Of a DNA stretch of 64,000 nt, positions 4,772-34,275 are shown piece after piece. Made by a program: the position numbers and the translations under genes. This DNA is from a virus: the IMG/VR virus record IMGVR_UViG_3300021962_000026, one strand, 5' to 3'. The notes under the pieces were generated by a model that was given only the letters and a program-made list of their open reading frames with translations, was not told the origin of the DNA and searched no databases. The stretch's first letter is position 1; each line of letters opens with the position of its first letter.

Positions 4772-5893
4772 ATGGAACTAACTTCAACACAAAAGCATTG
4801 GAATAATGCTACACTAAACTATGACCTTGAAAGATTTAATTGGCCTGCATGGGCATTATCTGTTATCCAAGAAATTGCTCCTCAGGTTACTGAACTAGAA
4901 ACACTGCACGAAGTTCTAACACCTAATGAAATTGTTAGAGTCTCTCAGCATGTGCAGAACAGTTGCAGTCGTAAAGACTTTATGGAACGCTTTGATGCTT
5001 TTGTTGCTGAGTATATCCCACAACGTATTAATAACAAGCGATACATGATACAACGACAAGGAACTCTTCGTGTAGTTATTCCTGATCAAGCACGAGTAGG
5101 CAGAAGGTTACAATTCCATCAGGGAATCTTTGTAGGCAATGGCAGAGGGTGTAGAACTATTTGGACACCGTTTACTGAAGCTCGTGACACTAACACAATG
5201 TGGATGGTAGATTTAGAAAATAGTAGACGTATTACAAAAAATTTTGTTACAGAAAAATGGGATTTAGTAAAGTTCGAGGATGAGTGTTTACGGGTAGCAT
5301 TTCCTGTAACACTAAAACCAGGTCAGAGCCATTTATTTTTTCAAGAGATGTTACATGGTAATGTAAACAATCAAGAAGGTTATACTCGTGTTAGCATGGA
5401 TATGCGTATCCTAATTGAAGGAGAGGAGTACGGTCGTAGACATCCAGGCGGCTTCATGCGATTGCCCGGTGATCATGAAGTAGCAGAAATTGGAGACTAT
5501 ACTGGCAAGAGTGCAATCACATATGCTGGTTGGGCTAGTGATTTTAGCCGCAACATTCCATTACCAATGCAACGTGCAATTATCGACCAGTATTGTGAAA
5601 AAAACAAAATTGCATATACTAATTATGAATTTGAAAATGACCATTGTGACTGGCAACCTTCCCTGGAGTATTTTATAAAACAACGCCCTAACGTTATTGT
5701 ATTAAATAGCATGTATTCATTAACAGACGACACTGTAAGACGTGAAGAAATTTTACAAGTAGCAGTTGATTGCGGAGTAGAATTACATTTTGCTAATGAA
5801 CACACTGTCTTAAGAACACTAGAAGATATAAAAAAGATCAAAACATATTTGGACTTTGCTGTTGCTAAAAAAGATCCTTATGTTTGGGAGTAG
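4772..5893 (+). CDS. 2OG-Fe(II) oxygenase (StrG-like) fused to a 'sporadic carbohydrate cluster'-like domain
   Basis: N-half FHQG...IWTP...LHGNVNN...TRVSMDMR; C-half IPLPMQRAIIDQYC...IVLNSMYSL...LHFANE. Confidence 0.65.
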   Translation: MELTSTQKHWNNATLNYDLERFNWPAWALSVIQEIAPQVTELETLHEVLTPNEIVRVSQHVQNSCSRKDFMERFDAFVAEYIPQRINNKRYMIQRQGTLRVVIPDQARVGRRLQFHQGIFVGNGRGCRTIWTPFTEARDTNTMWMVDLENSRRITKNFVTEKWDLVKFEDECLRVAFPVTLKPGQSHLFFQEMLHGNVNNQEGYTRVSMDMRILIEGEEYGRRHPGGFMRLPGDHEVAEIGDYTGKSAITYAGWASDFSRNIPLPMQRAIIDQYCEKNKIAYTNYEFENDHCDWQPSLEYFIKQRPNVIVLNSMYSLTDDTVRREEILQVAVDCGVELHFANEHTVLRTLEDIKKIKTYLDFAVAKKDPYVWE

Positions 5894-5896
5894 TAC

Positions 5897-6355
5897 TTGA
5901 AAGACAAACATAAACGAGCACATATGAAAGCAGCATTTGCTTATGCTGAGTGTAGCACTGCAAAGCGTCTCCAAGTAGGCTGTGTAATCGTAAAAGACAA
6001 TCGTGTTATTAGTATTGGCTACAACGGCATGCCCAGTGGCTGGACAAACGAGTGCGAGAATACTATAACAGAAAAAGTATCCAAGATTGAATACGAAACA
6101 CGATTGGTTACCAAACCAGAAGTACTCCATGCAGAATCCAATGCTGTTGCTAAACTGGCCCGTAGCAGTGAAAGCGGAGAAGGTGCCAGTGCTTTTGTAA
6201 CACATCAGCCCTGTATGGAATGCGCCAAACTATTATACCAAAGCGGCATCAAGAAAGTGTACTATGTGCATCCCTACAGACTTGCTGATGGACTTAAATT
6301 TTTACGAGAATGTAATATTCCGGTAGAGCAGATGGATAAACTTTGGTATGCATAA
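5897..6355 (+). CDS. dCMP deaminase
   Basis: VGCVIV...IGYNG...HAESNA...PCMEC zinc deaminase motifs. Confidence 0.92.
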   Translation: MKDKHKRAHMKAAFAYAECSTAKRLQVGCVIVKDNRVISIGYNGMPSGWTNECENTITEKVSKIEYETRLVTKPEVLHAESNAVAKLARSSESGEGASAFVTHQPCMECAKLLYQSGIKKVYYVHPYRLADGLKFLRECNIPVEQMDKLWYA

Positions 6356-7316
6356 AATAAGTATATTCAACGATTCGTCGAATTATAAATTTTATGATTA
6401 CCAACTGTTTTTAGTTAAAGAACAGTCTGACATTGTTACTTTTATTCATTGGGATCATGACTTTGACAAAGATATCCTGGATTGGGTTGACTCATTGTGT
6501 GTGAAAGTAAATAACCTTTATCGTAAGTATTATAGATTATATAGTTTTTGCCATTATCCAAATTTATTCACTAACAGGTTTCCAAACTTTGATTATGTTT
6601 ATAAACCCGAATTAATTTTTTTAAACTCTCAAAAATTTATAAATTTTGATGAAATACCTAATTTGAGACAAGTTAAATTAGAAAAAACTTTTTGTTTGCT
6701 TAATAATAGACCTACACCATGGAGGAAAAATTTATTTTGTTTTTTTAGAGACAATAACTTGTTGGATATGTCCTATGCTAGTTACAATAATAGTGCAAAT
6801 AGACACCGATCAAAAGATAACTTTATAGAAGAACCATATAAAAATTTTATTGAAAATAAAGTATATGAGGACGCAAATTTAAGCATAGGGTACTATTATC
6901 CTGTACATAATTTTTTATTTGATGTTTGTGCAGAAACATATATTGAAGATTACATTGGGCTAACAGAAAAAAGTATTAAACCATTCTTATGGGGCTATAT
7001 TCCGCTTATATATGGCCCAGCTGGTACTTACAGATATCTTAAAGATTTAGGATTAGACGTGTTCGATAATATCATTGATACTAGTTTTGATAATGAACGA
7101 AACCATAATACACGCATGTGGCGTTTTCAGCAAGAAGTTTTACGATTAAGCAAGATACCTTTAAACAACTATGACATAATGCAATTAGAATCTAGATTTC
7201 ATAATAATAGAAATGCATTTTTAAAAAATGCTAAACACTGCTTACAAACATTAGATTGGATCGAACAGGAAACTAGATTTTTAATACATAATAAGGAACA
7301 GTATCTTGGATTTTAA
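6348..7316 (+). CDS. putative glycosyltransferase (GT10-like 'TEK' family)
   Basis: AET...LTEKSIKPFLWGYIPLIYG...LKDLGLDVF...IIDTSFD; very AT-rich. Confidence 0.5.
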   Translation: MHKISIFNDSSNYKFYDYQLFLVKEQSDIVTFIHWDHDFDKDILDWVDSLCVKVNNLYRKYYRLYSFCHYPNLFTNRFPNFDYVYKPELIFLNSQKFINFDEIPNLRQVKLEKTFCLLNNRPTPWRKNLFCFFRDNNLLDMSYASYNNSANRHRSKDNFIEEPYKNFIENKVYEDANLSIGYYYPVHNFLFDVCAETYIEDYIGLTEKSIKPFLWGYIPLIYGPAGTYRYLKDLGLDVFDNIIDTSFDNERNHNTRMWRFQQEVLRLSKIPLNNYDIMQLESRFHNNRNAFLKNAKHCLQTLDWIEQETRFLIHNKEQYLGF

Positions 7317-7331
7317 TCGGAATATAGTTAA

Positions 7332-8072
7332 ATGACTACGCGGCTGTTTTTTATCGGCGTAAACCATATGTATGATGCTATTAATGTTTTACAGCATGAT
7401 AATTTATTATTAGACATAGACAAAACAATTATCTATTATGGCCCCCCTGATTTAGATTTTGACATGTTAGGGCGATTAAATGACGCTGGTATAGACACTA
7501 CAAATTTTTCTGTTTGTCAGGATGTAGAGTTAATAAACACTACAAATTATCATACAGAATTTTATAAATTTGGAGGTTGGATAGCTCAACAGTTCATTAA
7601 ATTATTAGCTATCGATGCTTGCAGTAATGAAAAAATATTAATACAAGACTGTGATGCACATTTATTAAAACCATACAATTTTTTTGACAATACAAATGCA
7701 CAACCTTTAGTGATACCTAATGAGACACATAGTCCTGGGTATTACACTTATATCGAAAAAATTTTAAATATTTCTAGACAAACACAAGATTGTTTTGTTA
7801 CAGAGTTTATGCCTATAACAAAACAATCTTGGTTGAATATGATTCATAGAATAGAAAAATTACACAACACCAATTGGTTTGATGCAATATATAAAATATT
7901 TGATAATGATTTTACAGGAAAGCAAATTTGGTTTAGTGAGTACGAATTACTAGGTAATTGGCAACTGTATGAAAACCCTAATATGAGTATGTTTCCTCAA
8001 ATAAGATATGAATCTGCTAATTGGTTTGATAATCCTGACACAAATGTATATAATTGTTATGCAAGGAAATAG
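7332..8072 (+). CDS. DUF6492-like, GT-A-fold putative glycosyltransferase
   Basis: GWIAQQFIKL, QDCD (DxD), FSEYELLG. Confidence 0.6.
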   Translation: MTTRLFFIGVNHMYDAINVLQHDNLLLDIDKTIIYYGPPDLDFDMLGRLNDAGIDTTNFSVCQDVELINTTNYHTEFYKFGGWIAQQFIKLLAIDACSNEKILIQDCDAHLLKPYNFFDNTNAQPLVIPNETHSPGYYTYIEKILNISRQTQDCFVTEFMPITKQSWLNMIHRIEKLHNTNWFDAIYKIFDNDFTGKQIWFSEYELLGNWQLYENPNMSMFPQIRYESANWFDNPDTNVYNCYARK

Positions 8073-8095
8073 AGTACTTTTTACCGGAATATATT

Positions 8096-9340
8096 ATGTT
8101 TGACATTTTCTGCATGCAGATTACAAATGATGAGGTGGATCTGCCAGCCCATACACAATATACTCGTTGGAACGGAACACACCTAGACACAATACGCAGG
8201 TGTATTAATCGTGCTAGAACAGAGTTTGTATGGATAGTTGCTGACTGTTGCGACTACTCAGACTTTGATTTTAACTGGCAACCAGTGCCCTGGGAAGCAG
8301 ATCAAATACACTGTTGGGCAAGCGGCAACCAACAATTTGGTGACACCTTTCTCGTCCCTGTCAGGGCTTTCAAGAAGCAAGAAGCAGGGCTTAAACTCCT
8401 AGAGTGGTATGAGCACATAAACTGGCACAGTGAGCCCAGTGTGCCTCGTAGAGAGTGGCCTACTGTTACTAGCCTAGAAGAACAAACCAGTCTGTATGCT
8501 TGGCATAAACAAACACCTGCTACTATTGATTACGAACCTAGTTTGTGGAAAAAACGCGATTTACATGCATTTACAAAAAGTGGTAGCGTACTACTAGTGC
8601 CAAGAGACTGTAAACAGCATTTTCAGGAACAATTTTACGACTATCCATACATCTTGCGTCATAATGAGTATCAAGTAACTGAAAACCTACTTGATGTAGT
8701 ATACTTGAGTAATGGTGAAAAAAACGCCAATAAAAACTGGGAGATACTAAAAGATATCTGTCCTAGAGCAAAGCGTATAGATGGTGTTACAGGCAGAGCA
8801 CAAGCATACAAAGCCTGTGCAGAGATAAGTGAAACGCCCTGGTTCTTTAATGTGTTTGCTAAGTGTATTGTGCAGCCAGACTTTGACTTTGACTGGCAAC
8901 CAGACTGGCTACAAGGACCCAAACACTGGATATTCCATAGCCGCAATCCTGTTAACGGATTAGAGTATGGACACATGGGTATTATTGCATACCATAAACA
9001 AATGGTATTAGATGCTACAGAATGGGGTCTGGACTTTACATTAAGTGCAAAGCATAATGTAATACCTGTAGTAGGTAGCATAGCAGACTTTAACACTACG
9101 CCTTACGAAACTTGGCGCACAGCCTTTCGTGAGTGCGTTAAACTTACTCAGAATGCAGACATTGAAAGTCGTTATAGACTAAAACAATGGAGTAATGTCG
9201 GTAATGGTGCCCATGGTGAGTGGAGTGTACTAGGTGCTCAAGATGCTATCAAGTATGTACAAAATGGAAACGACTTGCAACTAACTTTCGAGTGGGCTTT
9301 CCTCAAAGAACTGTTTGATAGCAATTATAATAAAGTCTAG
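8096..9340 (+). CDS. two-domain glycosyltransferase-like protein
   Basis: C-terminal domain (DVVYLSNGE...RIDGVTG...NGLEYG...WRTAFRECVKL) is paralogous to 29023-29949; ATG at 8096 preferred over TTG at 8054. Confidence 0.55.
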   Translation: MFDIFCMQITNDEVDLPAHTQYTRWNGTHLDTIRRCINRARTEFVWIVADCCDYSDFDFNWQPVPWEADQIHCWASGNQQFGDTFLVPVRAFKKQEAGLKLLEWYEHINWHSEPSVPRREWPTVTSLEEQTSLYAWHKQTPATIDYEPSLWKKRDLHAFTKSGSVLLVPRDCKQHFQEQFYDYPYILRHNEYQVTENLLDVVYLSNGEKNANKNWEILKDICPRAKRIDGVTGRAQAYKACAEISETPWFFNVFAKCIVQPDFDFDWQPDWLQGPKHWIFHSRNPVNGLEYGHMGIIAYHKQMVLDATEWGLDFTLSAKHNVIPVVGSIADFNTTPYETWRTAFRECVKLTQNADIESRYRLKQWSNVGNGAHGEWSVLGAQDAIKYVQNGNDLQLTFEWAFLKELFDSNYNKV

Positions 9341-10267
9341 TTCTTCATCTGTAATATAAGGATCAACTGGCAGTGCTAGTTGTGTATTGCAATTCTTTAT
9401 AGCCTGCGGCGTATCTGCTAACGGATGTTCATATACACGTTTGGTTTCTATTCCATGATTTGCAAGGTGCTTTTCTAGTTCTGGTCGTTGTGCTGTATCT
9501 ATTACAAACTTACTAATTTGACCATACGGGTCAGTTACACATTTAACTAAATCGCCAATTTCATCTATGTACTCAAATGCAACTTCTTGACGACGTTCCT
9601 GCCAGAATGGAAAAAAGTCTAATTTAACTAATAACTCTGCACATTCGCGTTCGCTAGGAATACTATTGCCACCTATATCTCTGCCATGTCTGCGTAGTTC
9701 TCTAACATTATTAGCAATTACTACGTCGTTCGTTACTACTGCACCAGCATTACCCCAGTTTGGTAATGCTTTGGTAGGATCAAAACTGTAAGATGCAAAC
9801 TCGCCCTGTAATGGTGCACCAAAGTGTTGAGCACCATCTTCATAAACAATATGATTAGTTGATATGTTTTCCGTATTTCCAAACAATCCAACCCATACAA
9901 CATGATCTGTCGTAATATCTTTCCAATTTATTAAGCCGTTGGGTTTTACGTCAGCAGGGACAGGAAGGTTATAACTTCTTTGGATACTATTTCTTGTTGC
10001 TATAAAAGTTTGACTCGGATAACTAATTCTTGTATTTGCATCTAGCCCACATGCTAGTAGACCTAAATATAATGAATCACTTCCGCTACCAGTCATGACG
10101 CAGTACTCTGCGTCTGCTACATTTGCGATTCTGTTTTCTAATTCTTGTGTAAATGGTCCTAACAGGTGTCTGCCTGTTTTATAAACTTGTTCTGCTTTAA
10201 GAGTTAACGGACCCTGTAACTCTTTATATAATCTATCTAAATTATGGAGACGTATCTTCGTCTTCAT
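9281..10267 (-). CDS. DegT/DnrJ/EryC1/StrS PLP-dependent sugar aminotransferase
   Basis: GSGSDSL, TFIAT, EDGAQHFG, SFDPTKAL (PLP lysine), LALPV. Confidence 0.85.
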   Translation of the reverse strand: MKTKIRLHNLDRLYKELQGPLTLKAEQVYKTGRHLLGPFTQELENRIANVADAEYCVMTGSGSDSLYLGLLACGLDANTRISYPSQTFIATRNSIQRSYNLPVPADVKPNGLINWKDITTDHVVWVGLFGNTENISTNHIVYEDGAQHFGAPLQGEFASYSFDPTKALPNWGNAGAVVTNDVVIANNVRELRRHGRDIGGNSIPSERECAELLVKLDFFPFWQERRQEVAFEYIDEIGDLVKCVTDPYGQISKFVIDTAQRPELEKHLANHGIETKRVYEHPLADTPQAIKNCNTQLALPVDPYITDEELDFIIIAIKQFFEESPLES

Positions 10268-10478
10268 CTTCGCTGGGCTCTACGGGTTTTACTGTTTGGT
10301 TATGAACGATAATTTGTTCTTTTAAATCATCTATGCCAATTTCGCCATTTTCTATCATATCTAATGCCTGTACACTTGTTATTTGCAATGTCCTACTTAA
10401 CATTGCTGCATAGTGAACAAGCTCTACCCTTGCCATTCCTGTTGTTGTAACAATTTTATGAACGTCTACAAAAGCCAT
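10242..10478 (-). CDS. hypothetical protein
   Basis: ORF packed in the operon; acidic C-terminus. Confidence 0.55.
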   Translation of the reverse strand: MAFVDVHKIVTTTGMARVELVHYAAMLSRTLQITSVQALDMIENGEIGIDDLKEQIIVHNQTVKPVEPSEDEDEDTSP

Positions 10479-10481
10479 TGT

Positions 10482-11171
10482 CTACTCCCTATGCTCTTTT
10501 ATTTTACCCATTATGAATTCTGAAATTACCTTATGCCCAAGTTTGTTAGGATGGGCTATGCATGGTCTTATAAACTTCTGAACGTCAGAATTATTAGTTT
10601 CTAACCAATATGTAAAATCTCCAACATGCGGAAACTCAACAAACCAGTTTTTTTGATCAAAACATTGCTGAACAATACATTTATCTTTAGGCAAAAGCCA
10701 AGCACTTTCTGGTATTAAATCCCAGAATTTACTCTCACAATGTTGACCCCCGAACATGTTTATAAAATAGGCTTTTATGTTATTGATTTTACATATTGAA
10801 TATAAAAGTAAACATAACTGACTAGTTAATAAATCATCATTTACATTATTACTTAAACTTAAAAGGCACTTGTCAATATAGCCAGGTAACTTCTGAATTC
10901 CATTGCTTCCATTGATATAGTTGCCATTATTATCAATCCAATATCGTCTAGAAGGATCGGTTAAACAAAAAACAGCAGTTTCTATGTTTAGTAAATTTTC
11001 TACTAACTGATGTGCAAAGTAATCATTGCTACCGCCTGAATATCCCAAGTTCAAACTTCCAGGAAAATAACTAGGAAAAGCAAACTCTGGTGCGTCACTT
11101 CCGTCTAGCTCATTGGCTTCACATCCAGCTACCCAACTATCACCAAAAAAAGCTACACGTCCTAAATCCAA
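10482..11171 (-). CDS. SGNH/GDSL hydrolase-like protein
   Basis: FFGDSW, NLGYSGGSN, HPNKLGH. Confidence 0.7.
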   Translation of the reverse strand: MDLGRVAFFGDSWVAGCEANELDGSDAPEFAFPSYFPGSLNLGYSGGSNDYFAHQLVENLLNIETAVFCLTDPSRRYWIDNNGNYINGSNGIQKLPGYIDKCLLSLSNNVNDDLLTSQLCLLLYSICKINNIKAYFINMFGGQHCESKFWDLIPESAWLLPKDKCIVQQCFDQKNWFVEFPHVGDFTYWLETNNSDVQKFIRPCIAHPNKLGHKVISEFIMGKIKEHRE

Positions 11172-11187: not shown

Positions 11188-11451
11188 TTATTTTAACCAT
11201 TTAAGAGACCAAAAAACCATGTCATCCTGATTTTCGAAACTCATTACTGCCATTCGGTCTGTAGTAAACCACCATCCCCATCTGCCAGTACAATTTTCTT
11301 TTGTCCACTCTATACTTGGATAACTTACTCCAATATCCCTAACAGGAACATTAAAAGTATATTTGTTGTTATATCCACACCCCGGGCCATAATCACTGCC
11401 CGGGGATGGATACGATTTATCACCATCGGTTATAGAGTAGGTTAAACCCAT
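11188..11451 (-). CDS. hypothetical protein
   Basis: Translationally coupled to yhhQ; Trp-rich C-terminal half. Confidence 0.55.
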   Translation of the reverse strand: MGLTYSITDGDKSYPSPGSDYGPGCGYNNKYTFNVPVRDIGVSYPSIEWTKENCTGRWGWWFTTDRMAVMSFENQDDMVFWSLKWLK

Positions 11452-12107
11452 TAGCCTTTGGCAGTATCGTTTAACTTACCTTTTAGGTAGTTAAGTAGGA
11501 TACCATAAGCTGGGAGGAATACAATCAAACCTACAACAATCTTTGTAAGTGTATTGTTCTGGGCAACCACGCTCCAGTTTTCACCAATCCAACTTAGTTT
11601 ACCATCTGGTCCTGTTGACCCTGCAAACGCAACATAGAAGAAGGTATAAGTGTCAATAATGTTAGCAACAATAGTTGATATTGCTGGCGCTAACCACCAT
11701 GCTTTTGCTCGTTCACGAATTGCTTGGAATACATATACGTCAAGCATTGTACCAATTGCATAAGCAGTACCACTTGCAAAACCTACACGGTATGCATGCT
11801 CATCACCAAGTGCTAGTAGCACTAGTACTGATGCAATAATGGCTGGAATAATTGCCATTGCTACAACAGCACGACCCGCTTCTTTACCAACCATACGCAC
11901 TGTGAGGTCAGTTGCTACAACTACGATTGGAAATGTAAATGCCGCTGCTGCCAATGGAAAACTTCCAAAGATTGGCAATTCAGCGCCAGGGAACAGATCG
12001 AATCTAATTGTAACCAAGTAATTACTCAGTGCAATTACTAATGTGTGTAGAATGACTAAATTTCTCACTAAAGTCTTATCTACACCGTCTAGTAGTTTTG
12101 AAAACAT
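11451..12107 (-). CDS. yhhQ: queuosine-precursor (preQ0/preQ1) transporter, YhhQ/VUT family
   Basis: IALSNYLV, AFTFP...ATDLTVR..G...GR, LDVYVF, WWLAPAIST..N.IDT..F..VAF, YGILL; about 6 TM helices. Confidence 0.88.
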   Translation of the reverse strand: MFSKLLDGVDKTLVRNLVILHTLVIALSNYLVTIRFDLFPGAELPIFGSFPLAAAAFTFPIVVVATDLTVRMVGKEAGRAVVAMAIIPAIIASVLVLLALGDEHAYRVGFASGTAYAIGTMLDVYVFQAIRERAKAWWLAPAISTIVANIIDTYTFFYVAFAGSTGPDGKLSWIGENWSVVAQNNTLTKIVVGLIVFLPAYGILLNYLKGKLNDTAKG

Positions 12108-12111
12108 TTTT

Positions 12112-12786
12112 TTATCCTTGTAAATCTTGCATTAATGGAAATATTGCTGCTATCACTTTGGCACAGGCGTGTGCTATTTCCATATGCTCTTTTTGTGTGC
12201 CATTTGCACCACGCAACTCAATGTAGTGCACCCAACTTCGTAATGTACCGTTCATGTACATACGGCTAACTGTATTGCCTTCTGGCAGAACAGCTCTGGC
12301 TTGCTCTTTAGCAATACCATTTTCAATAGCCCACGCATATGCTTGTTTAGCTTGCATTATGACTCTAAGTTGCTCTTCTTCCCACCGTTCGTGGATATAA
12401 CTGTTATCAGTATCGATACTATTCTGACGATTTTTAGTATCTTGTAAACGAGCTTCCCTAGTAACAAACTCTAGATCCTTTGTAGGATCAGCATAGCGTT
12501 GACTAAATTCCTGGAAACTAAAACTACGATGCCGCAGGATTTGTCTTGCAATATCTCTTGTAGTTTCGATTTCCATGCATGCACTGACCATTTCTAATGG
12601 TGACCAGTGTGCATGTTTAATTAGATATTTTATTAACTTTGCGCTCGTCTCCGTGTTTAACTGACCACTAGGGTTGCTAACTCTAGCACAGAACGCAATT
12701 AGGTCCTGCACGTCTGCATCAGCAAGATCGTGTTCAGTTAAAAACTCTGGAGCGGCTTGGCTATAACTAACCAGGCTAACTTTCAT
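12112..12786 (-). CDS. thyX: flavin-dependent thymidylate synthase
   Basis: HWSPLE, RQILRHRSFSFQEFSQRY, KEQARAVLP. Confidence 0.97.
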   Translation of the reverse strand: MKVSLVSYSQAAPEFLTEHDLADADVQDLIAFCARVSNPSGQLNTETSAKLIKYLIKHAHWSPLEMVSACMEIETTRDIARQILRHRSFSFQEFSQRYADPTKDLEFVTREARLQDTKNRQNSIDTDNSYIHERWEEEQLRVIMQAKQAYAWAIENGIAKEQARAVLPEGNTVSRMYMNGTLRSWVHYIELRGANGTQKEHMEIAHACAKVIAAIFPLMQDLQG

Positions 12787-13707: not shown

Positions 13708-13769
13708 TGAAATATACTCCTTATCGATAAGTACTGTAGTATAACATTATTATTATACTAGGTTTGGTA

Positions 13770-18623: not shown

Positions 18624-18630
18624 TACTTTA

Positions 18631-26559: not shown

Positions 26560-26737
26560 ACTTTTCTTTATATGCCTCTTCGAATCCTGCTTCCCATTGA
26601 TAGCACTCTGTATTATACCACATTCTTCTAAAATAGTCATTATACATGTCTAGCACAGTCATGTCTGGCCAAGTATCTGGTATTAATTGACCCTTTGTTA
26701 TCCAAAATATTCTATTGTATTCTCTATTTGTTCGCAA
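26552..26737 (-). CDS. 61-aa aromatic-rich hypothetical protein
   Basis: Overlaps both neighbouring rSAM genes; 4 W, 7 Y, 3 F. Confidence 0.6.
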   Translation of the reverse strand: MRTNREYNRIFWITKGQLIPDTWPDMTVLDMYNDYFRRMWYNTECYQWEAGFEEAYKEKYG

Positions 26738-28085
26738 GGTATCTACACTCGTTCCAAAATTCTATCATTTCAGGAAATGTTTTTTCAAAGTTAGTTCCGC
26801 GTCTACGGTCGTGTTCACTAAAAAACCTATAAAAGTCCGCTCTTTTGTGCTCTATATTGTTTGTGCCTTTTTGCATAAACTGAAGATCACGACGCATCTT
26901 TAAAACTTCGTAATCTTTAAAGCCGTGCATTTCGTCCAGGTTGTTGTTCATAAAGTTTATACAATCCCACAAGCATTGCTCATATGCTTTAGGAAGTATC
27001 TGTATGTTTTGCCAGTCTGGTGTATACAATAGTGGAGTATCAAACCAAATACGCTGATAAGTCTTTGTATATGTTTTACGCAAATATAATATGTATTCAA
27101 GTAATTGCTCTAATCCATTAATACTTAAATTGTTCATTGTTATAATAAATGTAAGACTTGAACGCTCTGGAACCTCCCGAACAAAACGCTCAACCCTATT
27201 TATGGCAAGGTCAAAGTCCAGTCCGTGACGTATGTATTCTGCTTGTGGACCCCAGGTATCTAAACTAACAAACTGCATAAAATGTTCTACGGTACCTGGT
27301 GCCTGTGTTAGGCGTTTTACATAGTCCAAATACTTTTCAAATACACGATCGTCAACACTAAAGTTGCTTGTAACATTTAGGTGTAAGTCTGACTTTGGAT
27401 TTTCAAGCACATAATCAAACACTCTATAGGTATTGGGATCCATTGTAGGCTCACCACCTGTCATACGAAAGTGTTTTAGGTCTTTATACAAGTCTGGCCA
27501 CCACCGCCAGAAGGCTTCCCTATATGGATTGTTTTCTCTATTAGGTATAGGCTTACGCTCGCCTGTAAAGTGTGCTGGATCATTATGTGGTGTGCGGGTA
27601 GGATAAGCGCCGTGTTCTTTGGCTTCTTGTTCCCAGGTACTGCTGAACTGTGGACTACAATAACTACACTTCAAATTACATGCATGATTAAAGTTTACTT
27701 CCACATAACTGGGGTTAACATCTGCTTGTGGGTTTGCTACTATATCCTCAAATGCTTCCATAGCCCAGGGCTCGCCACTACGATAATGGCGGTCACTTAA
27801 ACTACCGTTTTGTTCTATGTTCCAGCAATAGTTACATTCAGTGCACTTTATGCCATCAATCATTTCAGCACGCCTTTGTTTTTTATGTGCTGTATTGTGC
27901 AGGGCACTGGGATTATCTGCAAGTGGCTCAGTTGGTATGCGGTGTAGTGGAGGATGATAGCAACTGTTTGTGTGCCCAGTAGTTAGGTGTAGGCTTACTT
28001 GCTTCCATTTAGCCAAGCAGAAACTGCCGCTAACACCGGCTAGTCGTGCTTTTGCTAGTTCTGCATCTGCTAGATAATCACTCAC
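26724..28085 (-). CDS. N-terminal twitch-domain radical SAM protein
   Basis: CLAKW...SCYHP...CNYCW; CNLKCSYC; TGGEP. Confidence 0.9.
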   Translation of the reverse strand: MSDYLADAELAKARLAGVSGSFCLAKWKQVSLHLTTGHTNSCYHPPLHRIPTEPLADNPSALHNTAHKKQRRAEMIDGIKCTECNYCWNIEQNGSLSDRHYRSGEPWAMEAFEDIVANPQADVNPSYVEVNFNHACNLKCSYCSPQFSSTWEQEAKEHGAYPTRTPHNDPAHFTGERKPIPNRENNPYREAFWRWWPDLYKDLKHFRMTGGEPTMDPNTYRVFDYVLENPKSDLHLNVTSNFSVDDRVFEKYLDYVKRLTQAPGTVEHFMQFVSLDTWGPQAEYIRHGLDFDLAINRVERFVREVPERSSLTFIITMNNLSINGLEQLLEYILYLRKTYTKTYQRIWFDTPLLYTPDWQNIQILPKAYEQCLWDCINFMNNNLDEMHGFKDYEVLKMRRDLQFMQKGTNNIEHKRADFYRFFSEHDRRRGTNFEKTFPEMIEFWNECRYLANK

Positions 28086-29029
28086 TTCTTATCTCGTCCA
28101 ATGCCTTCGCCTCTTATCTCGCGTAACTTTTTACGATTACTTTCCAACCTGTCTAGTATTGTGCTATAATCTATTGGATTTGATAGATATTTTTGCAAAC
28201 TATTAAAAACTTTATCTACTCGAGTATAACCACTTACACTATCATATGATTTGTCTAGTATGTCTTCAAATATATCGAATCCTAATCCTTTTAAATTTTT
28301 CTCATATTCAGGACTACCTATTATCAAAAACAATCTACCATAAGCAATAGGCCTAAGTGTTTTTTCCGACATAAAAAAAGTATCTGACGCAGTGCTTGTT
28401 TCACAAACAACTTCTATACTTACATTTCGGTAAACATTCTCCCAAAACTGTATGTCCTTAACATTTCCTAAAATAATAGGCGGTTTAATATATTCGCCAA
28501 TATCGCTATAGGGAAATAGATGTTTAATTGCTTGCCATTTGTCATTATGTTCACAAATAAATTGTGTAAAATCACTTTGATGTTCGGAAATAGATTCAAT
28601 ATCTAAGTGACAGGTTCTAATACTATTTTGTGCACTACTAATACTAAATGCATAAAGACGTTCATTTGTAGCCCTTCCTATTAGTAGAGCATAATAATTT
28701 TTTTCAGGAATAGTTACAGTAGTAGGCATAAAATCTGACGATTTCCGCCAAATATTCATATCAGTTTTATTAAATACATGCTTAAAAATTTTACTTTTTA
28801 CAAGTCTGTCAGTAGACCTAACTGTTATTCTATCATAGGGTATAGACAATTTATCTGCACACTCTTTAACTACTTCTTCTAGGCCAGACTCTACAATATC
28901 AAAACCCTCATTGTATTGTTCTAGAACAATAGGATAACCTTTGTAATGAATACTCGCTATTTCCAATGCTAACAAATGTAAATCTCTAGTATGATTAGCG
29001 CCTAAATATTTTCTAAGGTCAATTACCAT
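28082..29029 (-). CDS. putative glycosyltransferase (GT10-like 'TEK' family)
   Basis: VVCET...MSEKTLRPI...LKGLGFDIF...LDKSYD. Confidence 0.5.
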   Translation of the reverse strand: MVIDLRKYLGANHTRDLHLLALEIASIHYKGYPIVLEQYNEGFDIVESGLEEVVKECADKLSIPYDRITVRSTDRLVKSKIFKHVFNKTDMNIWRKSSDFMPTTVTIPEKNYYALLIGRATNERLYAFSISSAQNSIRTCHLDIESISEHQSDFTQFICEHNDKWQAIKHLFPYSDIGEYIKPPIILGNVKDIQFWENVYRNVSIEVVCETSTASDTFFMSEKTLRPIAYGRLFLIIGSPEYEKNLKGLGFDIFEDILDKSYDSVSGYTRVDKVFNSLQKYLSNPIDYSTILDRLESNRKKLREIRGEGIGRDKK

Positions 29030-29949
29030 CCCTCCACCTTCCTAATAACTTCTATTTCTGTAGTCATAGGATCATATGCATGATAGGTTTGACTATAATA
29101 GTGTTTGAAGAATTTACTTTGTTGTGGATTATAATCTACAATAGGAAGTTCTAGTATGCGTCTAAGTTTTGCACCATACTCTGTGAAATTACTATCCAAC
29201 CATTCTTGTTCACGTTCCCACAAACGGTCTAGTGCAGCAAAGTCTCTTACTTCATGCCAGTCCCAGTCTGTGAGCATAAGCATATAGGTGCCTTGCCTAG
29301 CACCATACATTGCTTCAAATCCGTAGTCCGCATCAGCACCAACACTCTGCCAGACGCACAATTTATCAAAGTTCTTAGCGTGTACTTGTTGCTTGAATTC
29401 TTCCAGTGTAGGCTTGCGTCCTTTGTTAAGACACATCTTGACGCCTTCTCTAAATCCTGCTCTCCATGCATGTTTAGCATCACCGTTGGGATAGGTAGTG
29501 CTGTACACATTGTTCATGGGCAGATACTTGTCATCAAAGCAAAACTCTACAACAGTTTCGTCAGTCCCATCAGTTGCTTCATGAGTTTGCATACTGTTGA
29601 CAAACTCTCTTGTCCAGCAACTTAGTCCACCGTTGCCATACATAAGTCCATTTACTGCATTACGGGCTTTCCAACGAAACACACAATCACTATACTCAGG
29701 CTTAATATCTAATTGAATATCAAAGAAGGATTCGTCTGGTATATTGTCACCATCTATAAGAACAAAGCGTTCTGTATCACTAGCCGCGGCTGCTGCCTTA
29801 TGTGCTGCATCACTGCCTTCAACGCCATCTACTCGCTTTGCCCAGGGTACAATGTTTTGTATCTGAACCCAGAATTCTTCCTTTTGTGGCTCGTCATAAC
29901 TTAGATAAATGCAGTCTAAGTCTGCAATGTCTATTAGCGATCCAGCCAC
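29023..29949 (-). CDS. GT-A-fold glycosyltransferase-like protein
   Basis: LSYDEP, RVDGVEGSDAAH, LIDGD (DxD), YGNGG, WRAGFREGVKM. Confidence 0.6.
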   Translation of the reverse strand: MAGSLIDIADLDCIYLSYDEPQKEEFWVQIQNIVPWAKRVDGVEGSDAAHKAAAAASDTERFVLIDGDNIPDESFFDIQLDIKPEYSDCVFRWKARNAVNGLMYGNGGLSCWTREFVNSMQTHEATDGTDETVVEFCFDDKYLPMNNVYSTTYPNGDAKHAWRAGFREGVKMCLNKGRKPTLEEFKQQVHAKNFDKLCVWQSVGADADYGFEAMYGARQGTYMLMLTDWDWHEVRDFAALDRLWEREQEWLDSNFTEYGAKLRRILELPIVDYNPQQSKFFKHYYSQTYHAYDPMTTEIEVIRKVEGW

Positions 29950-30164
29950 TCGTGTAACCTTGCTACATTAGAATTACTATCTGTAAGCACACGAATACCA
30001 CGGGCATATATTGTACGATCAAGTTCGTATTCATCTTCCAAGGATTTTTCACAGAATTCCTTTAGTTGTGTAAACAATGCTTGATTATCTTCTAGTTGGT
30101 CCCTTGATATTAAATCACCCTTTTGCACTATATGTGGTAATGGAACAAATACTTCATTTTCCAT
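29934..30164 (-). CDS. hypothetical protein
   Basis: AAGGAG RBS; overlaps neighbours. Confidence 0.55.
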   Translation of the reverse strand: MENEVFVPLPHIVQKGDLISRDQLEDNQALFTQLKEFCEKSLEDEYELDRTIYARGIRVLTDSNSNVARLHEWLDR

Positions 30165-30960
30165 TATTATACTCCTTAATTAATCGTTGACGTTCTTTTT
30201 TAAGTTCTTCTTTTTGTAGATCACTTAAATTAACATCTAAATTTGTATTACCTATATCAATATTAAAACTAAAACTCCAGCGTTCACCCTTGCTACGGAA
30301 AGGATGGACACTATGTGGTAACCATGCAGGGAAAAAGTAAATGTCTCCTACTACAGGCTTTCTACGAAACATATGTATTGCACCAGACAGTGGCCGGCCG
30401 TCCCAAAAATTTATCATACCTGCACTTGGGTCATGATCCTCTCTTAGCCATTCCTCTTCAATATCTTCAGGAAGTTTTAAGTATCCTACTCCACTCACCT
30501 GTCCTACATGATGATGCGGTGGATTAAAGTCACCTGCTACACTTATATTACCCCAAACACCGTGTATGCTTACTACTAGATTAATGTGTTTAAGGTTGTC
30601 TTCTACCATTTCTATATGCAGGGGAGTAGCAACATCTTTCTGACATTCCCATATACCATAGGTGTTTGCTAAGAATATTTCACTTGCGCCCTGGTTAATG
30701 CACTCTTGGAACATTCTTAGGTTGCTGCCCAAATGTTCAGCAAGTATATTGAACTCTCTCTTGTTATTACCTGCTAGAGTCCATGCGTTGTCTTCGTGCT
30801 GTTCTAGTTCTTCCTTGGCACGTTGTTGTTCAAAAATATCACAAAGTACTTTTTGCAACTCTTCTGACATTTTTCCCTGTACTATACTTGGTCCGAATGG
30901 CCTTACTACTCTAAAGTCGTCGCTTGGCTGTGCCATTGGCATGTCACTAACTGTCTGCAT
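30154..30960 (-). CDS. putative 2OG-Fe(II) oxygenase
   Basis: GDFNPPHHH...SGVGYL...FFPAWLPHSVHPF...ERWSFSFN. Confidence 0.8.
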   Translation of the reverse strand: MQTVSDMPMAQPSDDFRVVRPFGPSIVQGKMSEELQKVLCDIFEQQRAKEELEQHEDNAWTLAGNNKREFNILAEHLGSNLRMFQECINQGASEIFLANTYGIWECQKDVATPLHIEMVEDNLKHINLVVSIHGVWGNISVAGDFNPPHHHVGQVSGVGYLKLPEDIEEEWLREDHDPSAGMINFWDGRPLSGAIHMFRRKPVVGDIYFFPAWLPHSVHPFRSKGERWSFSFNIDIGNTNLDVNLSDLQKEELKKERQRLIKEYNNGK

Positions 30961-31264
30961 CTATTTCCCTTTTGCAAAAGTATGGATTGTTGTTCGCAAT
31001 CTCTGCTGGTGTTGCTGTCCAATACACATGGATACTAGTATCTATTTTTACAAGTTTTCCATCTACTACACGCATTTTATCTGGACGTATTTCTGTCTCG
31101 TCTGCAATGACGATGTATGCATCTTCCCACGCCTCAAGTTTGTTTACATGTTGTTTGTCAATTACTTCACCAGTATCTTTATTATAGCGCAACCTAACTT
31201 CAAGTTCAATTTTCTTACGAGGATTATTTAAGTTAAGCAGGGCTTGTTCTAATTCTGTGCTCAT
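30947..31264 (-). CDS. hypothetical protein
   Basis: In-operon ORF. Confidence 0.6.
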   Translation of the reverse strand: MSTELEQALLNLNNPRKKIELEVRLRYNKDTGEVIDKQHVNKLEAWEDAYIVIADETEIRPDKMRVVDGKLVKIDTSIHVYWTATPAEIANNNPYFCKREIDADS

Positions 31265-32075
31265 ATCTGTCTATCAATTCTGGAGTGCAAAATGTTTTGT
31301 CATAGTAATGAAATGGATACTGTTGTGCATAGCCACCAACTATTAAGTCAAAGTTATCAGTAAGTGTCCAGGGTACTGCATCTTGCCATTTCATACTGGG
31401 CGACCAGTTGTTTATTACTGGCTTCATGTGTGTAAATGTTGGATAACTAAGTGTATTTACACAAGGTTGACCAATACATGATTGAGCAATAGCATATAAA
31501 ACATCAGTATCAGGTTTGTCATAGATACTATACTTAAGAACGCTGTCACGTAAAACAGGCCAATGTTGTATCGCCGTTTCAATAGCACGGCAGAAGTCCA
31601 TACTAGTCCTACTGTACCTAAAATATGAAAAGCCGTTATAAGAATCATCAAGATTGTTGGCATCAAAAAACTTCCTATAATATCGTGTTTGAGCAATGCG
31701 TCCCTGGTAATCTCTTACCTTGTTAGTATAACATACATCCTGCAATCTGCAACCAGGCCACCAGTGATCCAAACTGCGTGGTATAAGCATATCACTTTCT
31801 ACTTTGAATGTTTCCTTAAAAGGAGTTACACGCATTATCCAGGCTTCATTATAAAAAGGCTCTGTGCGTGGTACTGTAATAATATGATCAAACACTCGTC
31901 GCTGTTTATCTGTAATACTATCTAGTGATTCATCGTCAACAACTACAGCAAACCTATTGTGCTTGCAAGTTGCTTTGATGCTTAGAGCAAGCAGGTAAGC
32001 AAGGTCAACATAATTCGTGTCTGCACTATTTTGTGCAAAGGTTAACCAGCCCTTGGGTTCGTCCTTTGGTTGCAT
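31233..32075 (-). CDS. glycosyltransferase-like protein (GT8-like GT-A fold)
   Basis: LALSIK, FDHII, TPFKETFKVESDM, TDVLYAIA, FTHMK; paralog of 32770-33555. Confidence 0.6.
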   Translation of the reverse strand: MQPKDEPKGWLTFAQNSADTNYVDLAYLLALSIKATCKHNRFAVVVDDESLDSITDKQRRVFDHIITVPRTEPFYNEAWIMRVTPFKETFKVESDMLIPRSLDHWWPGCRLQDVCYTNKVRDYQGRIAQTRYYRKFFDANNLDDSYNGFSYFRYSRTSMDFCRAIETAIQHWPVLRDSVLKYSIYDKPDTDVLYAIAQSCIGQPCVNTLSYPTFTHMKPVINNWSPSMKWQDAVPWTLTDNFDLIVGGYAQQYPFHYYDKTFCTPELIDRYEHRIRTSPA

Positions 32076-32087: not shown

Positions 32088-32792
32088 TTAGAAAATGCCT
32101 TTTTCTTTCATATAATCATATATTTTTAAATGTCCATGTCTGTTCATATGAAGACCGTCTGGACGAAAATATTTCTCTATCATAGGACTAGATTTATTTT
32201 TATACGCTGTTAGATAATTTCTATGATTGAAACTATCATCTGCTAAGAATTTTAAAAAATTTTCATTCCTAGAAGTTACTTCTTTTACACTCCACATTTG
32301 ATTGATGCATCTAGGAAAAACTTGATCGGGTATTAGCCAAGTTGGCAAATATTCTATTACAGGAATTAAGTTATTATATTTTTTTATTGATTCTAAGTTA
32401 ATAGGAAAACATCCTCCTAAGCAATGAATTCTTTTATTAGTTTCATTTAACTCTTTGTATGCCTGATCTAATAGAGTTTTTTCTAGTGTCAAAAAATCCT
32501 CAATCGAATCAATCCCTTTATAAAAAAGATTTGATTTTGCCCTGCATTTATTCCATCTTTCTCTAAGGGGATCACTTTGAAACCATATAATTCTATCATA
32601 TATATTGGGCTGTTCTCGTATTAATACCACTTGACTATAATTATCACCACCACCTTGACCTATATTTGTAACTGTATGGCCATCGTTCTGTAAATATTCA
32701 GTTAAACCACGATGTAGCACTACATACTCGCGTTCTGAGTTTTCTCCCCATTCGCCCTGACTCCAACTGTCACCTGCTATTAGAATATGCAT
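32088..32792 (-). CDS. SGNH/GDSL hydrolase-like protein
   Basis: IAGDSW, NIGQGGGDN, DGLHMNRHGH (DxxH). Confidence 0.7.
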   Translation of the reverse strand: MHILIAGDSWSQGEWGENSEREYVVLHRGLTEYLQNDGHTVTNIGQGGGDNYSQVVLIREQPNIYDRIIWFQSDPLRERWNKCRAKSNLFYKGIDSIEDFLTLEKTLLDQAYKELNETNKRIHCLGGCFPINLESIKKYNNLIPVIEYLPTWLIPDQVFPRCINQMWSVKEVTSRNENFLKFLADDSFNHRNYLTAYKNKSSPMIEKYFRPDGLHMNRHGHLKIYDYMKEKGIF

Positions 32793-33555
32793 CCATTGCT
32801 CCATATATTTCTGGATCCTGCAAACAGGCTTTGTTCATACAGTGTAGATTTACTCCTTTGAGTTTAACAGCATTAAACTTATCACCATCAACATAGCGTA
32901 TCTTTAGTTCATCATCCTTTACTGCATATATACTATCCACAGTGCTTAAACTTGCTAGTGGGTGGTTAAAGTATGTGCCACTGGAATAGCCATTCATAAG
33001 TTGGTGTGCTATAGTTAAACTAAAATCGTTGCGATATTTGCCAGCAGTAAATCCCCAAAACTTTGCATAGTAACGCCAATTTGCTTGTACATTTTTCATC
33101 ATTTCAAATATGTTATAGGCTAGGTCGCATTTGCGGAAATAAACGACCGTAGCCCATAACATTGGATGGCCAGCTCTAGTCATCCAGCGATCATGTTTAA
33201 AACTATCCGTGGAGGTGACGTCCCAAACTTGATCATAACATAAAAACTCGTTGTTGCTACCAAAATATTGTTTTAAATTGTCGTTGAATGTGAGATAGTC
33301 TACATCTATTAGTAGTGTTTCATCATAAGGACTTAAATCATATGCAAGTGTTCTATCACTATTATACCAGGGTACAGTAACAACTTCGCCTGCATGCCAG
33401 CGAAATGCTCTAGTATTGCCTGGACGTGCTTCACCTATGTGTATATGTGTGTCTATCCCTAAATGTTTTTCTACAAGTTTTGCTGCTAAACGAGCAAAAC
33501 CAATGTAGTCTATTGTTTCATGTGGTGTGGCAAGTAAGAGTGCACCCCTACCCAT
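32770..33555 (-). CDS. glycosyltransferase-like protein (GT8-like GT-A fold)
   Basis: AYDLSPYDETLLIDVDY (DxD), WATVVYF, YRNDF, HCMNK. Confidence 0.65.
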   Translation of the reverse strand: MGRGALLLATPHETIDYIGFARLAAKLVEKHLGIDTHIHIGEARPGNTRAFRWHAGEVVTVPWYNSDRTLAYDLSPYDETLLIDVDYLTFNDNLKQYFGSNNEFLCYDQVWDVTSTDSFKHDRWMTRAGHPMLWATVVYFRKCDLAYNIFEMMKNVQANWRYYAKFWGFTAGKYRNDFSLTIAHQLMNGYSSGTYFNHPLASLSTVDSIYAVKDDELKIRYVDGDKFNAVKLKGVNLHCMNKACLQDPEIYGAMDAYSNSR

Positions 33556-33952
33556 TTACTCGTTTCCTCAAATCACTTGTACTAAAGCGGTGTTCTCTTT
33601 TATTAAAATAAAGTTCTATACCTCGTTTAGCGCAAATAGCTCTGCCAGTGAATCTTCCGTCCTTGTATTCTTCTCCTATAATACGAACATGGATATTGTA
33701 CATTAACAATATGTCTTCTAAATCAGCTTCAGTAGCATATGGAATAATTTCATCAACATAGCTAACTGCTTTTAGTTGTGTATAACGCTCTACTACTGTT
33801 TGTACTGGTTTATTCTTTTCAGGCCTGTCAATACTAGGGTCTATTTGTAGCCCGCATATTAGATAATCACATTGATCTTTAGCTTCACGCAACATTATTA
33901 CGTGACCAGCATGCAATAAATCAAACGAGCTACAAGTAAAACCTACTCTCAT
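33548..33952 (-). CDS. TagD-like (glycerol-3-phosphate) cytidylyltransferase
   Basis: FDLLHAGH (HxGH), ICGLQ, YVDEII, RFSTS. Confidence 0.88.
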   Translation of the reverse strand: MRVGFTCSSFDLLHAGHVIMLREAKDQCDYLICGLQIDPSIDRPEKNKPVQTVVERYTQLKAVSYVDEIIPYATEADLEDILLMYNIHVRIIGEEYKDGRFTGRAICAKRGIELYFNKREHRFSTSDLRKRVNG

Positions 33953-34275
33953 AGTTGTTCTACACGCCTAACTTTTCGCAGTTCTTCATGTTGATTGTGC
34001 CAATCATTCATAACTTCGTACCAGCGTTCTCTACATTTTGCGAGCATATCCGCAGTATCATCTATACGCACAGGATTGTCATAATTGTCTATGAGATATA
34101 AGATATGCTCATCACCCCAGGTACTGAGCAATGCCATTAGTTCAACTGTGATGCGAAATTGGCCGCCGCTATGTGTAATAGTTAAACGCTGTTCTTGTTG
34201 TTCTTTAAGAGCCAGACGTTGGCGATTATGATCCAGACGTTGGCGAGCAAACTCTTCATAGGATTCTATTGTCAT
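33949..34275 (-). CDS. hypothetical protein, first gene of the enzyme operon
   Basis: 108 aa, directly downstream of the promoter at 34282-34310. Confidence 0.7.
   Translation of the reverse strand: MTIESYEEFARQRLDHNRQRLALKEQQEQRLTITHSGGQFRITVELMALLSTWGDEHILYLIDNYDNPVRIDDTADMLAKCRERWYEVMNDWHNQHEELRKVRRVEQL

Follow-up and report, generated by a model that had tools for sequence, protein, structure and literature searches.

A radical SAM-rich gene cassette behind the tail-fiber genes of a jumbo phage, with a candidate role in cytoplasmic sugar tailoring

The operon and its promoter

An operon rich in radical S-adenosylmethionine (SAM) enzymes lies directly behind the tail-fiber genes in IMG/VR record IMGVR_UViG_3300021962_000026, a stretch of 64,000 nucleotides that is called the window here and derives from a jumbo myophage that has not been cultured. 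Its baseplate wedge protein (54830-58366, minus strand) matches PHROG 10646 at E 1e-293 and has its closest cultured relatives, at 33-37% identity, in Sinorhizobium phage Phosso, Agrobacterium phage Atu_ph07, Pectobacterium phage CBB, Cronobacter phage GAP32 and Salicola phage SCTP-2; the phage is assigned to the giant T4-like lineage of 300-350 kb. Baseplate and fiber genes are located upstream of the operon, with three fiber genes (37049-37711, 35309-36991 and 34361-35290) immediately preceding it. The operon itself runs from 34275 to 14978 on the minus strand and packs 22 open reading frames (ORFs) plus one unannotated 33-codon ORF into about 19 kb. Starts and stops overlap or abut throughout, apart from two gaps of 204 and 83 nucleotides, and the tight coupling proposed in a preliminary description of this DNA therefore holds. 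Satellite genes stand at about 4443-11171. When the cluster was searched for near-identical DNA among GenBank phages, no match was returned.

A near-consensus sigma-70-type promoter (34282-34310, minus strand) precedes the first gene, with TTGACA and TATACT separated by 17 nucleotides and a TG before the -10 hexamer. The spacer forms a GC hairpin, and the mRNA is probably leaderless because the ATG lies only 6 nucleotides past the -10 hexamer. This promoter is the single match to TTGACA-N15-19-TAWAMT in the whole window. Both hexamers and the hairpin, the latter with compensatory changes, are kept in four related loci (L002, L003, L004 and L013) at an ATG distance of 6-8 nucleotides. Given the conserved promoter, the covarying hairpin and the leaderless ATG, the operon is a transcription unit of its own rather than just a read-through extension of the late fiber operon. 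Adjacency to the fiber genes, as first described, thus stands within the clade, but the operon with its TTGACA-N17-TATACT promoter is no mere continuation of them, and this weakens the case for its co-expression with the late fiber genes. Judged by its hexamers, the promoter appears to resemble one for host RNA polymerase, of early type, more than a late promoter. Only one copy of TATAAATA, the late-promoter motif of T4, was found in the window (14267-14274, just before the ORF at 14279), where shuffles predict 9.6, and none lies upstream of the operon; the motif is depleted rather than used in the window and is therefore unusable for timing expression.

Relatives of the most conserved radical SAM gene (21969-23267) show that the cassette recurs in no fewer than 574 IMG/VR stretches; complete phage genomes of 320-354 kb carry it as well. 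At least 12 related contigs, up to one of 343,664 bp, keep a fixed order (L002-L007, L013-L016 and L020-L021): fiber genes, promoter, a 108-aa protein, two GT8-like glycosyltransferase (GT) genes, a 105-aa protein, a GT-A-like protein, five radical SAM enzymes, a 33-aa peptide and a carbamoyltransferase. Several small ORFs are variable across the relatives, like the genes for a B12-type radical SAM enzyme, a 2-oxoglutarate (2OG) oxygenase and a cytidylyltransferase. The 108-aa protein, encoded by the first operon gene (33949-34275, minus strand), has orthologs in 8 related loci and no Pfam or PHROG match; the 105-aa protein (30947-31264, minus strand) has orthologs in L007 and L013-L015 and no family match. 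Two of the contigs, L020 (148 kb) and L021 (183 kb), were binned with a Haliscomenobacter metagenome-assembled genome (MAG). Since they carry the full cassette behind fiber genes, both are phage sequences that ended up in a bacterial bin, either as an artefact or as a possible hint at a Bacteroidota host.

A smaller core recurs in distant phages and consists of radical SAM genes, the carbamoyltransferase, a DUF6071/SGNH-like protein and the small peptide, referred to below by its DPFIY motif. The module of a marine T4-like clade B (L079) comprises a B12-type radical SAM enzyme, PhyH, the carbamoyltransferase, seven radical SAM enzymes, DUF6071, glutaredoxin and a GT1 protein, and adjoins PhoH and RNaseH, not fibers; one clade-B protein was found in 213 collection blocks. 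Ralstonia phage RsoM2USA, the one cultured carrier of this minimal module, has a carbamoyltransferase (46% identity), a single radical SAM gene and three copies of DUF6071 in the neighborhood of genes for DNA ligase and helicase. Synteny with the fiber genes, a check named in the preliminary description, is thus invariable in the close clade, but the core stands away from fibers in the distant phages.

Radical SAM paralogs and the DPFIY peptide

The five radical SAM paralogs, described earlier as twitch enzymes, all belong to the N_Twi_rSAM family (NCBIfam NF033640), with scores of 298-405 bits that exceed its cut-off of 170. All are N-terminal-twitch enzymes encoded on the minus strand. Three are of subtype A, at 16568-17845 (298 bits), 20822-21976 (333 bits) and 21969-23267 (405 bits), the last being the most conserved member. 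Two are of subtype B, at 23264-24616 (310 bits) and 26724-28085 (324 bits, with the motif CNLKCSYC), and share 31% identity; the former is 49% identical to the sole radical SAM enzyme of RsoM2USA, also of subtype B. The cluster motif, CNxKCRxC or CNxxCSYC, falls at residues 106-152 of the five paralogs. Across 14 radical SAM sequences, C152, C156 and C159 (CX3CX2C) and G212-G213-E214 (GGEP) are invariant, and four further invariant Cys residues (C42, C61, C102 and C105) precede CX3CX2C in an N-terminal twitch-like domain. Pfam SPASM matches lie at residues 4-105, ahead of the Radical_SAM domain. For 21969-23267, the N-terminal domain can be aligned to its only PDB sequence match, the BtrN twitch domain (E 0.002); the protein's database relatives number 7118 at E <= 1e-10.

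Complete relatives contain 7-13 N_Twi matches per genome at E <= 0.001, 6-12 of which exceed the family cut-off, and thus carry the cassette together with further scattered N_Twi genes; none of 14 control genomes reaches the cut-off. In this phage the NF033640 family is enlarged to a tandem set of five paralogs that fall into two subtypes. We know of no characterized member of the family and of no reaction assigned to it, and a literature search for the accession gave no match.

The single B12-type radical SAM enzyme of the preliminary description was recovered at 25087-26640 (minus strand), a variable gene of class B architecture with a Pfam Radical_SAM match at E 2.9e-16 (60.5 bits). Its B12-binding domain scores 27.3 bits (E 3.4e-6), under the Pfam cut-off of 32.1, and its NCBIfam matches (PhpK, a C-methyltransferase of ribosomally synthesized and post-translationally modified peptides (RiPPs), and BchE) all fall far under their cut-offs. 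An ortholog exists in L006, and beside it lies the only ortholog of the 165-aa protein (24609-25106, minus strand) that accompanies this gene in the window. A SufT/DUF59-type Fe-S assembly protein (4443-4763, plus strand; Pfam FeS_assembly_P E 2.7e-16) likely helps the six Fe-S enzymes. A SufT-family gene directly follows the carbamoyltransferase in L013-L015.

N_Twi radical SAM genes outside the clade are found in Bdellovibrionota beside relatives of the window proteins 29023-29949 and 8054-9340, and a Bacteriovorax N_Twi locus contains GT1, carbamoyltransferase, DegT, PqqD, ABC-2 exporter and PMT_2 genes. Taken together, the bacterial and distant-phage contexts favor chemistry of a glycan type, perhaps with proteins as acceptors. 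Fusions were also observed: in an Elusimicrobia MAG, six tandem genes (L024, 43-15757) and three more (L026, 182-8030) encode proteins of 560-1130 aa in which a long TPR array is joined to an N-terminal-twitch radical SAM enzyme, and L023 holds a Sel1-repeat fusion to an N_Twi enzyme.

The unannotated ORF of the operon (16483-16584, minus strand) overlaps a radical SAM stop and the carbamoyltransferase start and encodes a basic 33-aa peptide ending RKRDPFIYK. DPFIY(K/EE) peptides are present in all three phage versions of the module, with 33 aa in clade A, 39 aa in clade B and 36 aa in RsoM2USA. The RsoM2USA counterpart, an unannotated 36-codon ORF ending KQDPFIYK (L001 20892-21002, minus strand; MG752970.1 at about 125,891-126,001), sits between two DUF6071 genes. 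A predicted complex of the 33-aa peptide with the carbamoyltransferase scored 0.01, which gives no answer and speaks neither for nor against binding.

This peptide invites a reading in which it is itself the substrate of a RiPP-like pathway, to be cross-linked, glycosylated or carbamoylated, or in which the cassette makes a free aminoglycoside-like metabolite; we consider either outcome rather improbable. The peptide accompanies the module in each of its phage versions and exceeds the enzymes in conservation, SPASM/twitch radical SAM enzymes are typical peptide maturases, the window enzymes give weak NCBIfam matches to sactipeptide, ranthipeptide and cyclophane maturases, and the Bacteriovorax locus includes a PqqD gene. 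As for a metabolite, the combination of twitch radical SAM enzyme, DegT aminotransferase, B12-type enzyme and carbamoyltransferase mirrors BtrN, BtrS, GenK and TobZ of aminoglycoside tailoring, and a twitch-type auxiliary cluster domain together with co-occurring DegT-family, B12-type and TobZ-family enzymes is what the cassette has in common with the systems of BtrN, NeoN, AprD4, GenK and TobZ. However, the peptide contains no Cys, Ser or Thr and has no recognizable leader/core split, Pfam scans detected no PqqD or RRE family in any window ORF, and the peptide was not found in the cellular N_Twi loci examined. The twitch domain is N-terminal in the phage enzymes but C-terminal in BtrN, with negligible similarity outside it. 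Unlike the aminoglycoside pathways, the cassette is phage-borne, and no aminocyclitol scaffold enzyme such as 2-deoxy-scyllo-inosose synthase was found.

Sugar enzymes and the carbamoyltransferase

Eight GT-like proteins had been proposed. A GT8-like pair, a GT-A-like protein and its satellite paralog are kept as candidates on profile, fold-model or paralogy grounds, whereas the GT nature of a trio with an ITEK motif was not verified; Pfam and PHROGs scans of the ORFs did not recover the GT-like, SGNH, sulfotransferase or SDR assignments. The first GT8-like core gene (31233-32075, minus strand) gives profile matches to glycogenin-1/2 at E 1.3e-5 that span positions 5-104 only, does not match Pfam Glyco_transf_8 and carries E93-x-D95 in place of DxD. 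Its core paralog (32770-33555, minus strand; hhalign 96% to the family of 31233-32075) has a conserved D84-x-D86; each of the two has orthologs in 9 loci. The GT-A-like core protein (29023-29949, minus strand) has an invariant D66-G-D68 and an AlphaFold2 model with a predicted local distance difference test score (pLDDT) of 70.6. Its residues 4-148 match nucleoside diphosphate (NDP)-sugar-transferase/GT-A and nucleotidyltransferase folds at VIA Z 6-7.4, a range that the tool calls middling, and A64R of PBCV-1 is among these matches (Z 6.7, root-mean-square deviation 4.2, 135 aligned); the top Foldseek rows are GT-A, but at E >= 0.055. The C-terminal half of a 428-aa satellite protein (8054-9340, plus strand) is paralogous to it, with 34% identity over 166 aa, and this satellite has orthologs in L003-L006 and L016 as well as beside radical SAM genes in Bdellovibrionota.

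The ITEK-motif family (...ET...ITEKT.KP...) is represented at 28082-29029 (minus strand), at 18631-19629 (minus strand, in a low-GC stretch) and by a satellite at 6348-7316 (plus strand). It has 13,577 representatives at 50% identity and E <= 1e-3, many of them tandem two-domain proteins of 700-850 aa, and Pfam matched no family on 75 sampled relatives. The AlphaFold2 model of 28082-29029 is poor (pLDDT 45), with best fold rows of GT-B type at Z <= 4.8, and the atlas feature lead for the family is GT10 (0.79); on this modeling, the family is possibly a GT-B/GT10-like transferase. PDB profile searches with the families of 29023, 32770 and 28082 gave no significant match. The last of the eight proposed proteins, a DUF6492 satellite in a low-GC stretch (7332-8072, plus strand; Pfam E 6.1e-9), showed no relation to the GT8-like family by hhalign.

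Pfam and NCBIfam confirmed the carbamoyltransferase, the DegT aminotransferase and the cytidylyltransferase. The DegT/DnrJ/EryC1-family sugar aminotransferase is a satellite (9281-10267, minus strand; Pfam E 4.1e-33) that in L003, L006 and L016 forms a pair with an 8054-type gene, next to the end of the cassette that carries the carbamoyltransferase. The cytidylyltransferase-like nucleotidyltransferase (33548-33952, minus strand), of RfaE domain II/TagD type, matches Pfam CTP_transf_like at E 1.4e-13 and NCBIfam at domain level; it is variable, and no ortholog appeared in the relatives' loci examined. One of two proposed 2OG oxygenases was recovered by Pfam as 2OG-FeII_Oxy_5 (30154-30960, minus strand; E 2.5e-18), a variable gene with an ortholog only in L003, but the halogenase-type call at 4772-5893 found no support in Pfam, PHROG or PDB sequence searches.

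Two of three proposed SGNH proteins are SGNH-like by motif and paralogy. The variable SGNH/GDSL-like protein at 32088-32804 (minus strand) has invariant G11 D12 S13 and D216 G217 H219, no Pfam match, and weak, non-significant PDB profile matches to SGNH enzymes (E 0.045-2); its satellite paralog at 10482-11171 (minus strand; hhalign 90%, E 1.4e-6) has GDS and DxxH motifs. The third, a 191-aa protein (19613-20188, minus strand), shows an N-terminal GDS motif only and was negative in hhalign against the SGNH-like family; the related slot in L016 weakly matches DUF6071 and Lipase_GDSL_2. An SDR epimerase had been proposed at 20185-20847 (minus strand). This 220-aa protein has an N-terminal GxxGxxG, orthologs in L002, L007 and L020 and a match to RmlD_sub_bind at E 0.009 only, with an empty PDB search, and is possibly a short Rossmann (SDR-like) enzyme. 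The sulfotransferase-like call at 14279-14983 likewise gained no support from Pfam, PHROG or PDB sequence searches.

The last operon gene encodes an O-carbamoyltransferase of the NodU/CmcH/TobZ family (14978-16486, minus strand) with orthologs in all phage loci. Its Kae1-like N domain (Pfam Carbam_trans_N, 118.9 bits) and YrdC-like C domain (Carbam_trans_C, 169.6 bits) both exceed the Pfam cut-offs. Its PDB matches are NovN (E 6e-47), TobZ (E 6e-33) and GdmN, placing it closest to O-carbamoyltransferases of sugars and small molecules, and an EFGPRALGNRS motif occupies residues 359-369. A TobZ-like phage enzyme is known to carbamoylate 5-hydroxymethylcytosine (5hmC) in DNA to 5-carbamoyloxymethylcytosine, and co-occurs with thymidylate synthase (TS) homologs, MazG-type genes and dCMP deaminase (Yang et al. 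2021, PMC8670742). With this precedent, the carbamoyltransferase, GTs and radical SAM enzymes could decorate hydroxymethylated pyrimidines of the phage DNA. A dCMP deaminase is indeed encoded close to the cassette, both in the window (5897-6355) and in L016 and RsoM2USA, and the early-type promoter is consistent with DNA modification. RsoM2USA, in which the module stands among DNA-metabolism genes, has two TS-family genes and a nucleoside triphosphate pyrophosphatase, so its minimal module could act on DNA.

The relatives speak against such DNA hypermodification, which was listed as an alternative in the preliminary description, has lost weight since and now seems very unlikely. Four cassette-bearing relatives of 92-100% completeness have exactly one PF00303 gene each (349-361 bits), with a canonical PFNIASY in the copy of G007, and no match to C5 DNA methylase, ThyX or Tet_JBP; the Tet_JBP search was empty in control genomes too, which makes its absence a weak negative. 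The hydroxymethylase-type TS homolog, C5-methylase and TET of the 5hmC system were thus not found in complete relatives, and in the window the TS slot is occupied by ThyX. The pattern is not uniform: the closest long relative, G006 (302 kb, 85% complete; L166), has a divergent homolog of 189 bits as its sole TS-family gene (G006:C1:140020-140748), reading PCW and PFALQQY instead of PCH and PFNIASY. The window enzyme resembles the 5hmC enzyme as a phage-encoded, two-domain TobZ-like protein with a dCMP deaminase nearby and is 35% identical to it over a conserved 74-residue core. It nevertheless keeps TobZ G421 and R423 (G366 and R368 in RALGNRS), two positions occupied by C and T in the 5hmC enzyme. 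At TobZ positions 408/421/423, a numbering mapped from alignment offsets, the residues are V353, G366 and R368 in the window, W, G and R in TobZ and I, C and T in the 5hmC enzyme, making two of the three TobZ-like. The cellular N_Twi contexts are likewise of glycan rather than DNA type.

Proposed pathway, acceptors and flanking genes

We favor, with little more than even confidence, a reading in which the operon and the satellites at about 4443-11171 serve the cytoplasmic assembly and radical editing of a sugar-based decoration by soluble enzymes. The family assignments agree with the soluble, cytoplasmic pathway of sugar building and tailoring first described. Window-wide prediction confirmed that no cluster protein has a transmembrane-like segment or signal peptide, such features being confined to a YhhQ protein and the ORF at 13764-14243, and the stated lack of a flippase or GtrAB-type membrane parts in the window was borne out. 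Read throughout from family membership, the pathway would begin with the nucleotidyltransferase and the DegT aminotransferase, which may supply activated or aminated sugars that the GT8-like and GT-A-like transferases would join to an acceptor. Each of the five N_Twi paralogs could then perform a different hydrogen-abstraction reaction on the scaffold, with oxidation, epimerization or deoxygenation as candidates; BtrN, NeoN and AprD4 carry out such radical reactions on aminoglycoside sugars. The B12-type enzyme might optionally add a methyl group, the 2OG oxygenase, SGNH-like proteins and O-carbamoyltransferase would finish hydroxyl groups, and the SufT-like protein would assist Fe-S cluster loading.

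Several observations weigh against this reading. With no characterized N_Twi member as a guide, the sugar substrate is deduced from neighbors only; several GT-like assignments have weak fold or motif support; the RsoM2USA core module has no adjacent recognizable GT; and the cytidylyltransferase, B12-type and 2OG genes are variable and missing from most relatives. SPASM/twitch similarity combined with a conserved small peptide fits a peptide-modifying system as well, and a late promoter would be better suited to virion decoration than the apparent early-type one for host RNA polymerase.

The TPR- and Sel1-fused radical SAM enzymes and the likeness of the GT8-like proteins to glycogenin, a protein-Tyr glucosyltransferase, hint at a protein acceptor. 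Our leading guess, a tentative one, is a phage-made protein, either a virion fiber or another; next come the invariant DPFIY peptide, glycans of the host and a free metabolite. Attachment to the Ser/Thr-rich tail fibers or baseplate proteins encoded just upstream is possible, though we would not expect it on present evidence, and would perhaps alter host recognition or shield the fibers. In the close clade the cassette is always directly behind the three fiber genes, its enzymes are soluble and cytoplasmic, where virions assemble, the GT8-like proteins resemble a protein glycosyltransferase, and the relatives fused to TPR arrays point to proteins as substrates. Mycobacteriophages offer a documented case of virion glycosylation (Freeman 2023, cited in PMC12619734). 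However, the promoter and hairpin set a boundary behind the fiber genes, the T4 late motif is absent upstream of the operon, and the core module is not beside fibers in clade-B marine phages or RsoM2USA. The fiber-adjacent region is moreover a hypervariable slot of marine T4-like phages, and adjacency may reflect a cargo landing site (PMC7029224).

That slot has been described in pelagimyophages, where Zaragoza-Solas 2020 reported GT8-rich host-recognition clusters with radical SAM cassettes beside tail fibers (PMC7029224), and one T4-like marine genome with 12 radical SAM genes was reported (PMC7029224, PMC5332604). The cassette resembles this host-recognition cluster (PMC7029224; Nishimura 2017, PMC5332604) in being a hypervariable fiber-adjacent block with GT8, LPS-type sugar genes and radical SAM cassettes. 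Those papers list genes only and note radical SAM cassettes and GT8 genes beside fibers in passing; the N-twitch family, fixed order, promoter, DPFIY peptide and carbamoyltransferase link are not described there. The published reading of GT8-rich clusters (PMC7029224) suggests host-directed remodeling, in which nucleotide-sugar pools or surface polysaccharide precursors would be altered, for example to block superinfection, a role already put forward for LPS-type genes in marine myophages. The early-type promoter suits this proposal, as does the cellular homolog context with its ABC-2 exporter and PMT_2 surface-glycan machinery. We nonetheless regard it as unlikely: a membrane-associated GT, flippase, polymerase and ligase are all missing from the window, a jumbo phage with a lytic cycle would be spending 19 kb and six Fe-S enzymes on a surface destined for destruction, and the conserved phage-specific peptide would be left unexplained.

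Returning to sugar tailoring in the cytoplasm, a bolder version, which we hold to be doubtful, would have the glycogenin-like GT8 protein prime a phage protein or the invariant Tyr of DPFIYK with a sugar, after which the five radical SAM enzymes would each perform a distinct and unprecedented C-H functionalization of the glycan, followed by carbamoylation. Such a novel post-translational chemistry of viruses would give giant aquatic phages a surface decoration with no cellular counterpart. Like the mycobacteriophage capsid and tail glycans, PBCV-1 A64R and the Mimivirus fibril sugars, the cassette relies on soluble virus-encoded GTs and sugar enzymes with no membrane machinery. It differs in that radical SAM enzymes and a carbamoyltransferase are found only in the phage cassette, and in that the cassette is known from its genes alone; to our knowledge, none of the mycobacteriophage, PBCV-1 and Mimivirus systems uses either enzyme type. 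A link to the moraphage lineage was considered, but the paper on it (PMC12619734) makes no mention of radical SAM genes. The N_Twi family has thousands of members, and its fixed-order expansion beside sugar enzymes in these phages is a comparatively well-framed place to find its function. The cassette is abundant in aquatic viromes, and its product is probably a common, unrecognized feature of large phages. If carried on virions, this product bears on host recognition and environmental phage survival; if it is located elsewhere, the cassette represents a new auxiliary pathway, for which the phage maintains six Fe-S enzymes as well as a dedicated helper for Fe-S assembly.

G+C content drops to about 0.31 at 6001-8000 and 18001-20000 (0.313 at 18-20 kb), against 0.36-0.42 elsewhere. 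These stretches coincide with the variable ORFs at 6348-8072 and 17838-19629, which have no orthologs in most relatives; both properties suggest recently acquired cassettes. Among them, the 261-aa ORF at 17838-18623 (minus strand) has no relatives among the loci fetched. A PHROGs search of 20 unassigned ORFs gave nothing useful.

Pfam and NCBIfam identified DegT, DUF6492, dCMP deaminase, ThyX and a YhhQ-type transporter in the satellite block. The YhhQ/Vut_1 (preQ-type) transporter directly follows ThyX (11451-12786, minus strand), the dCMP deaminase (5897-6355, plus strand) being close by; TGT/DpdA was not found in related phage fragments. Complete relatives have ThyA at the place corresponding to the window ThyX, an apparent non-orthologous replacement. 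The region's sole predicted secreted protein is a 159-aa ORF (13764-14243, plus strand) with a clear N-terminal signal peptide. Between the wedge gene and the fiber genes, a single 4523-aa ORF (41259-54830, minus strand) with FG-GAP repeats and a CBM_5_12-like stretch is presumably a giant fiber or baseplate-attached protein. At the other end of the window lie an HNH endonuclease (2412-2849, plus strand) and a DUF2201 metallopeptidase/VWA-like protein (3191-4477, plus strand). A relative of the latter (36% identity) adjoins an N_Twi radical SAM gene in a Dojkabacteria MAG (L061), and a MoxR/DUF58 pair flanks the radical SAM locus of a Bdellovibrionia MAG (L076).

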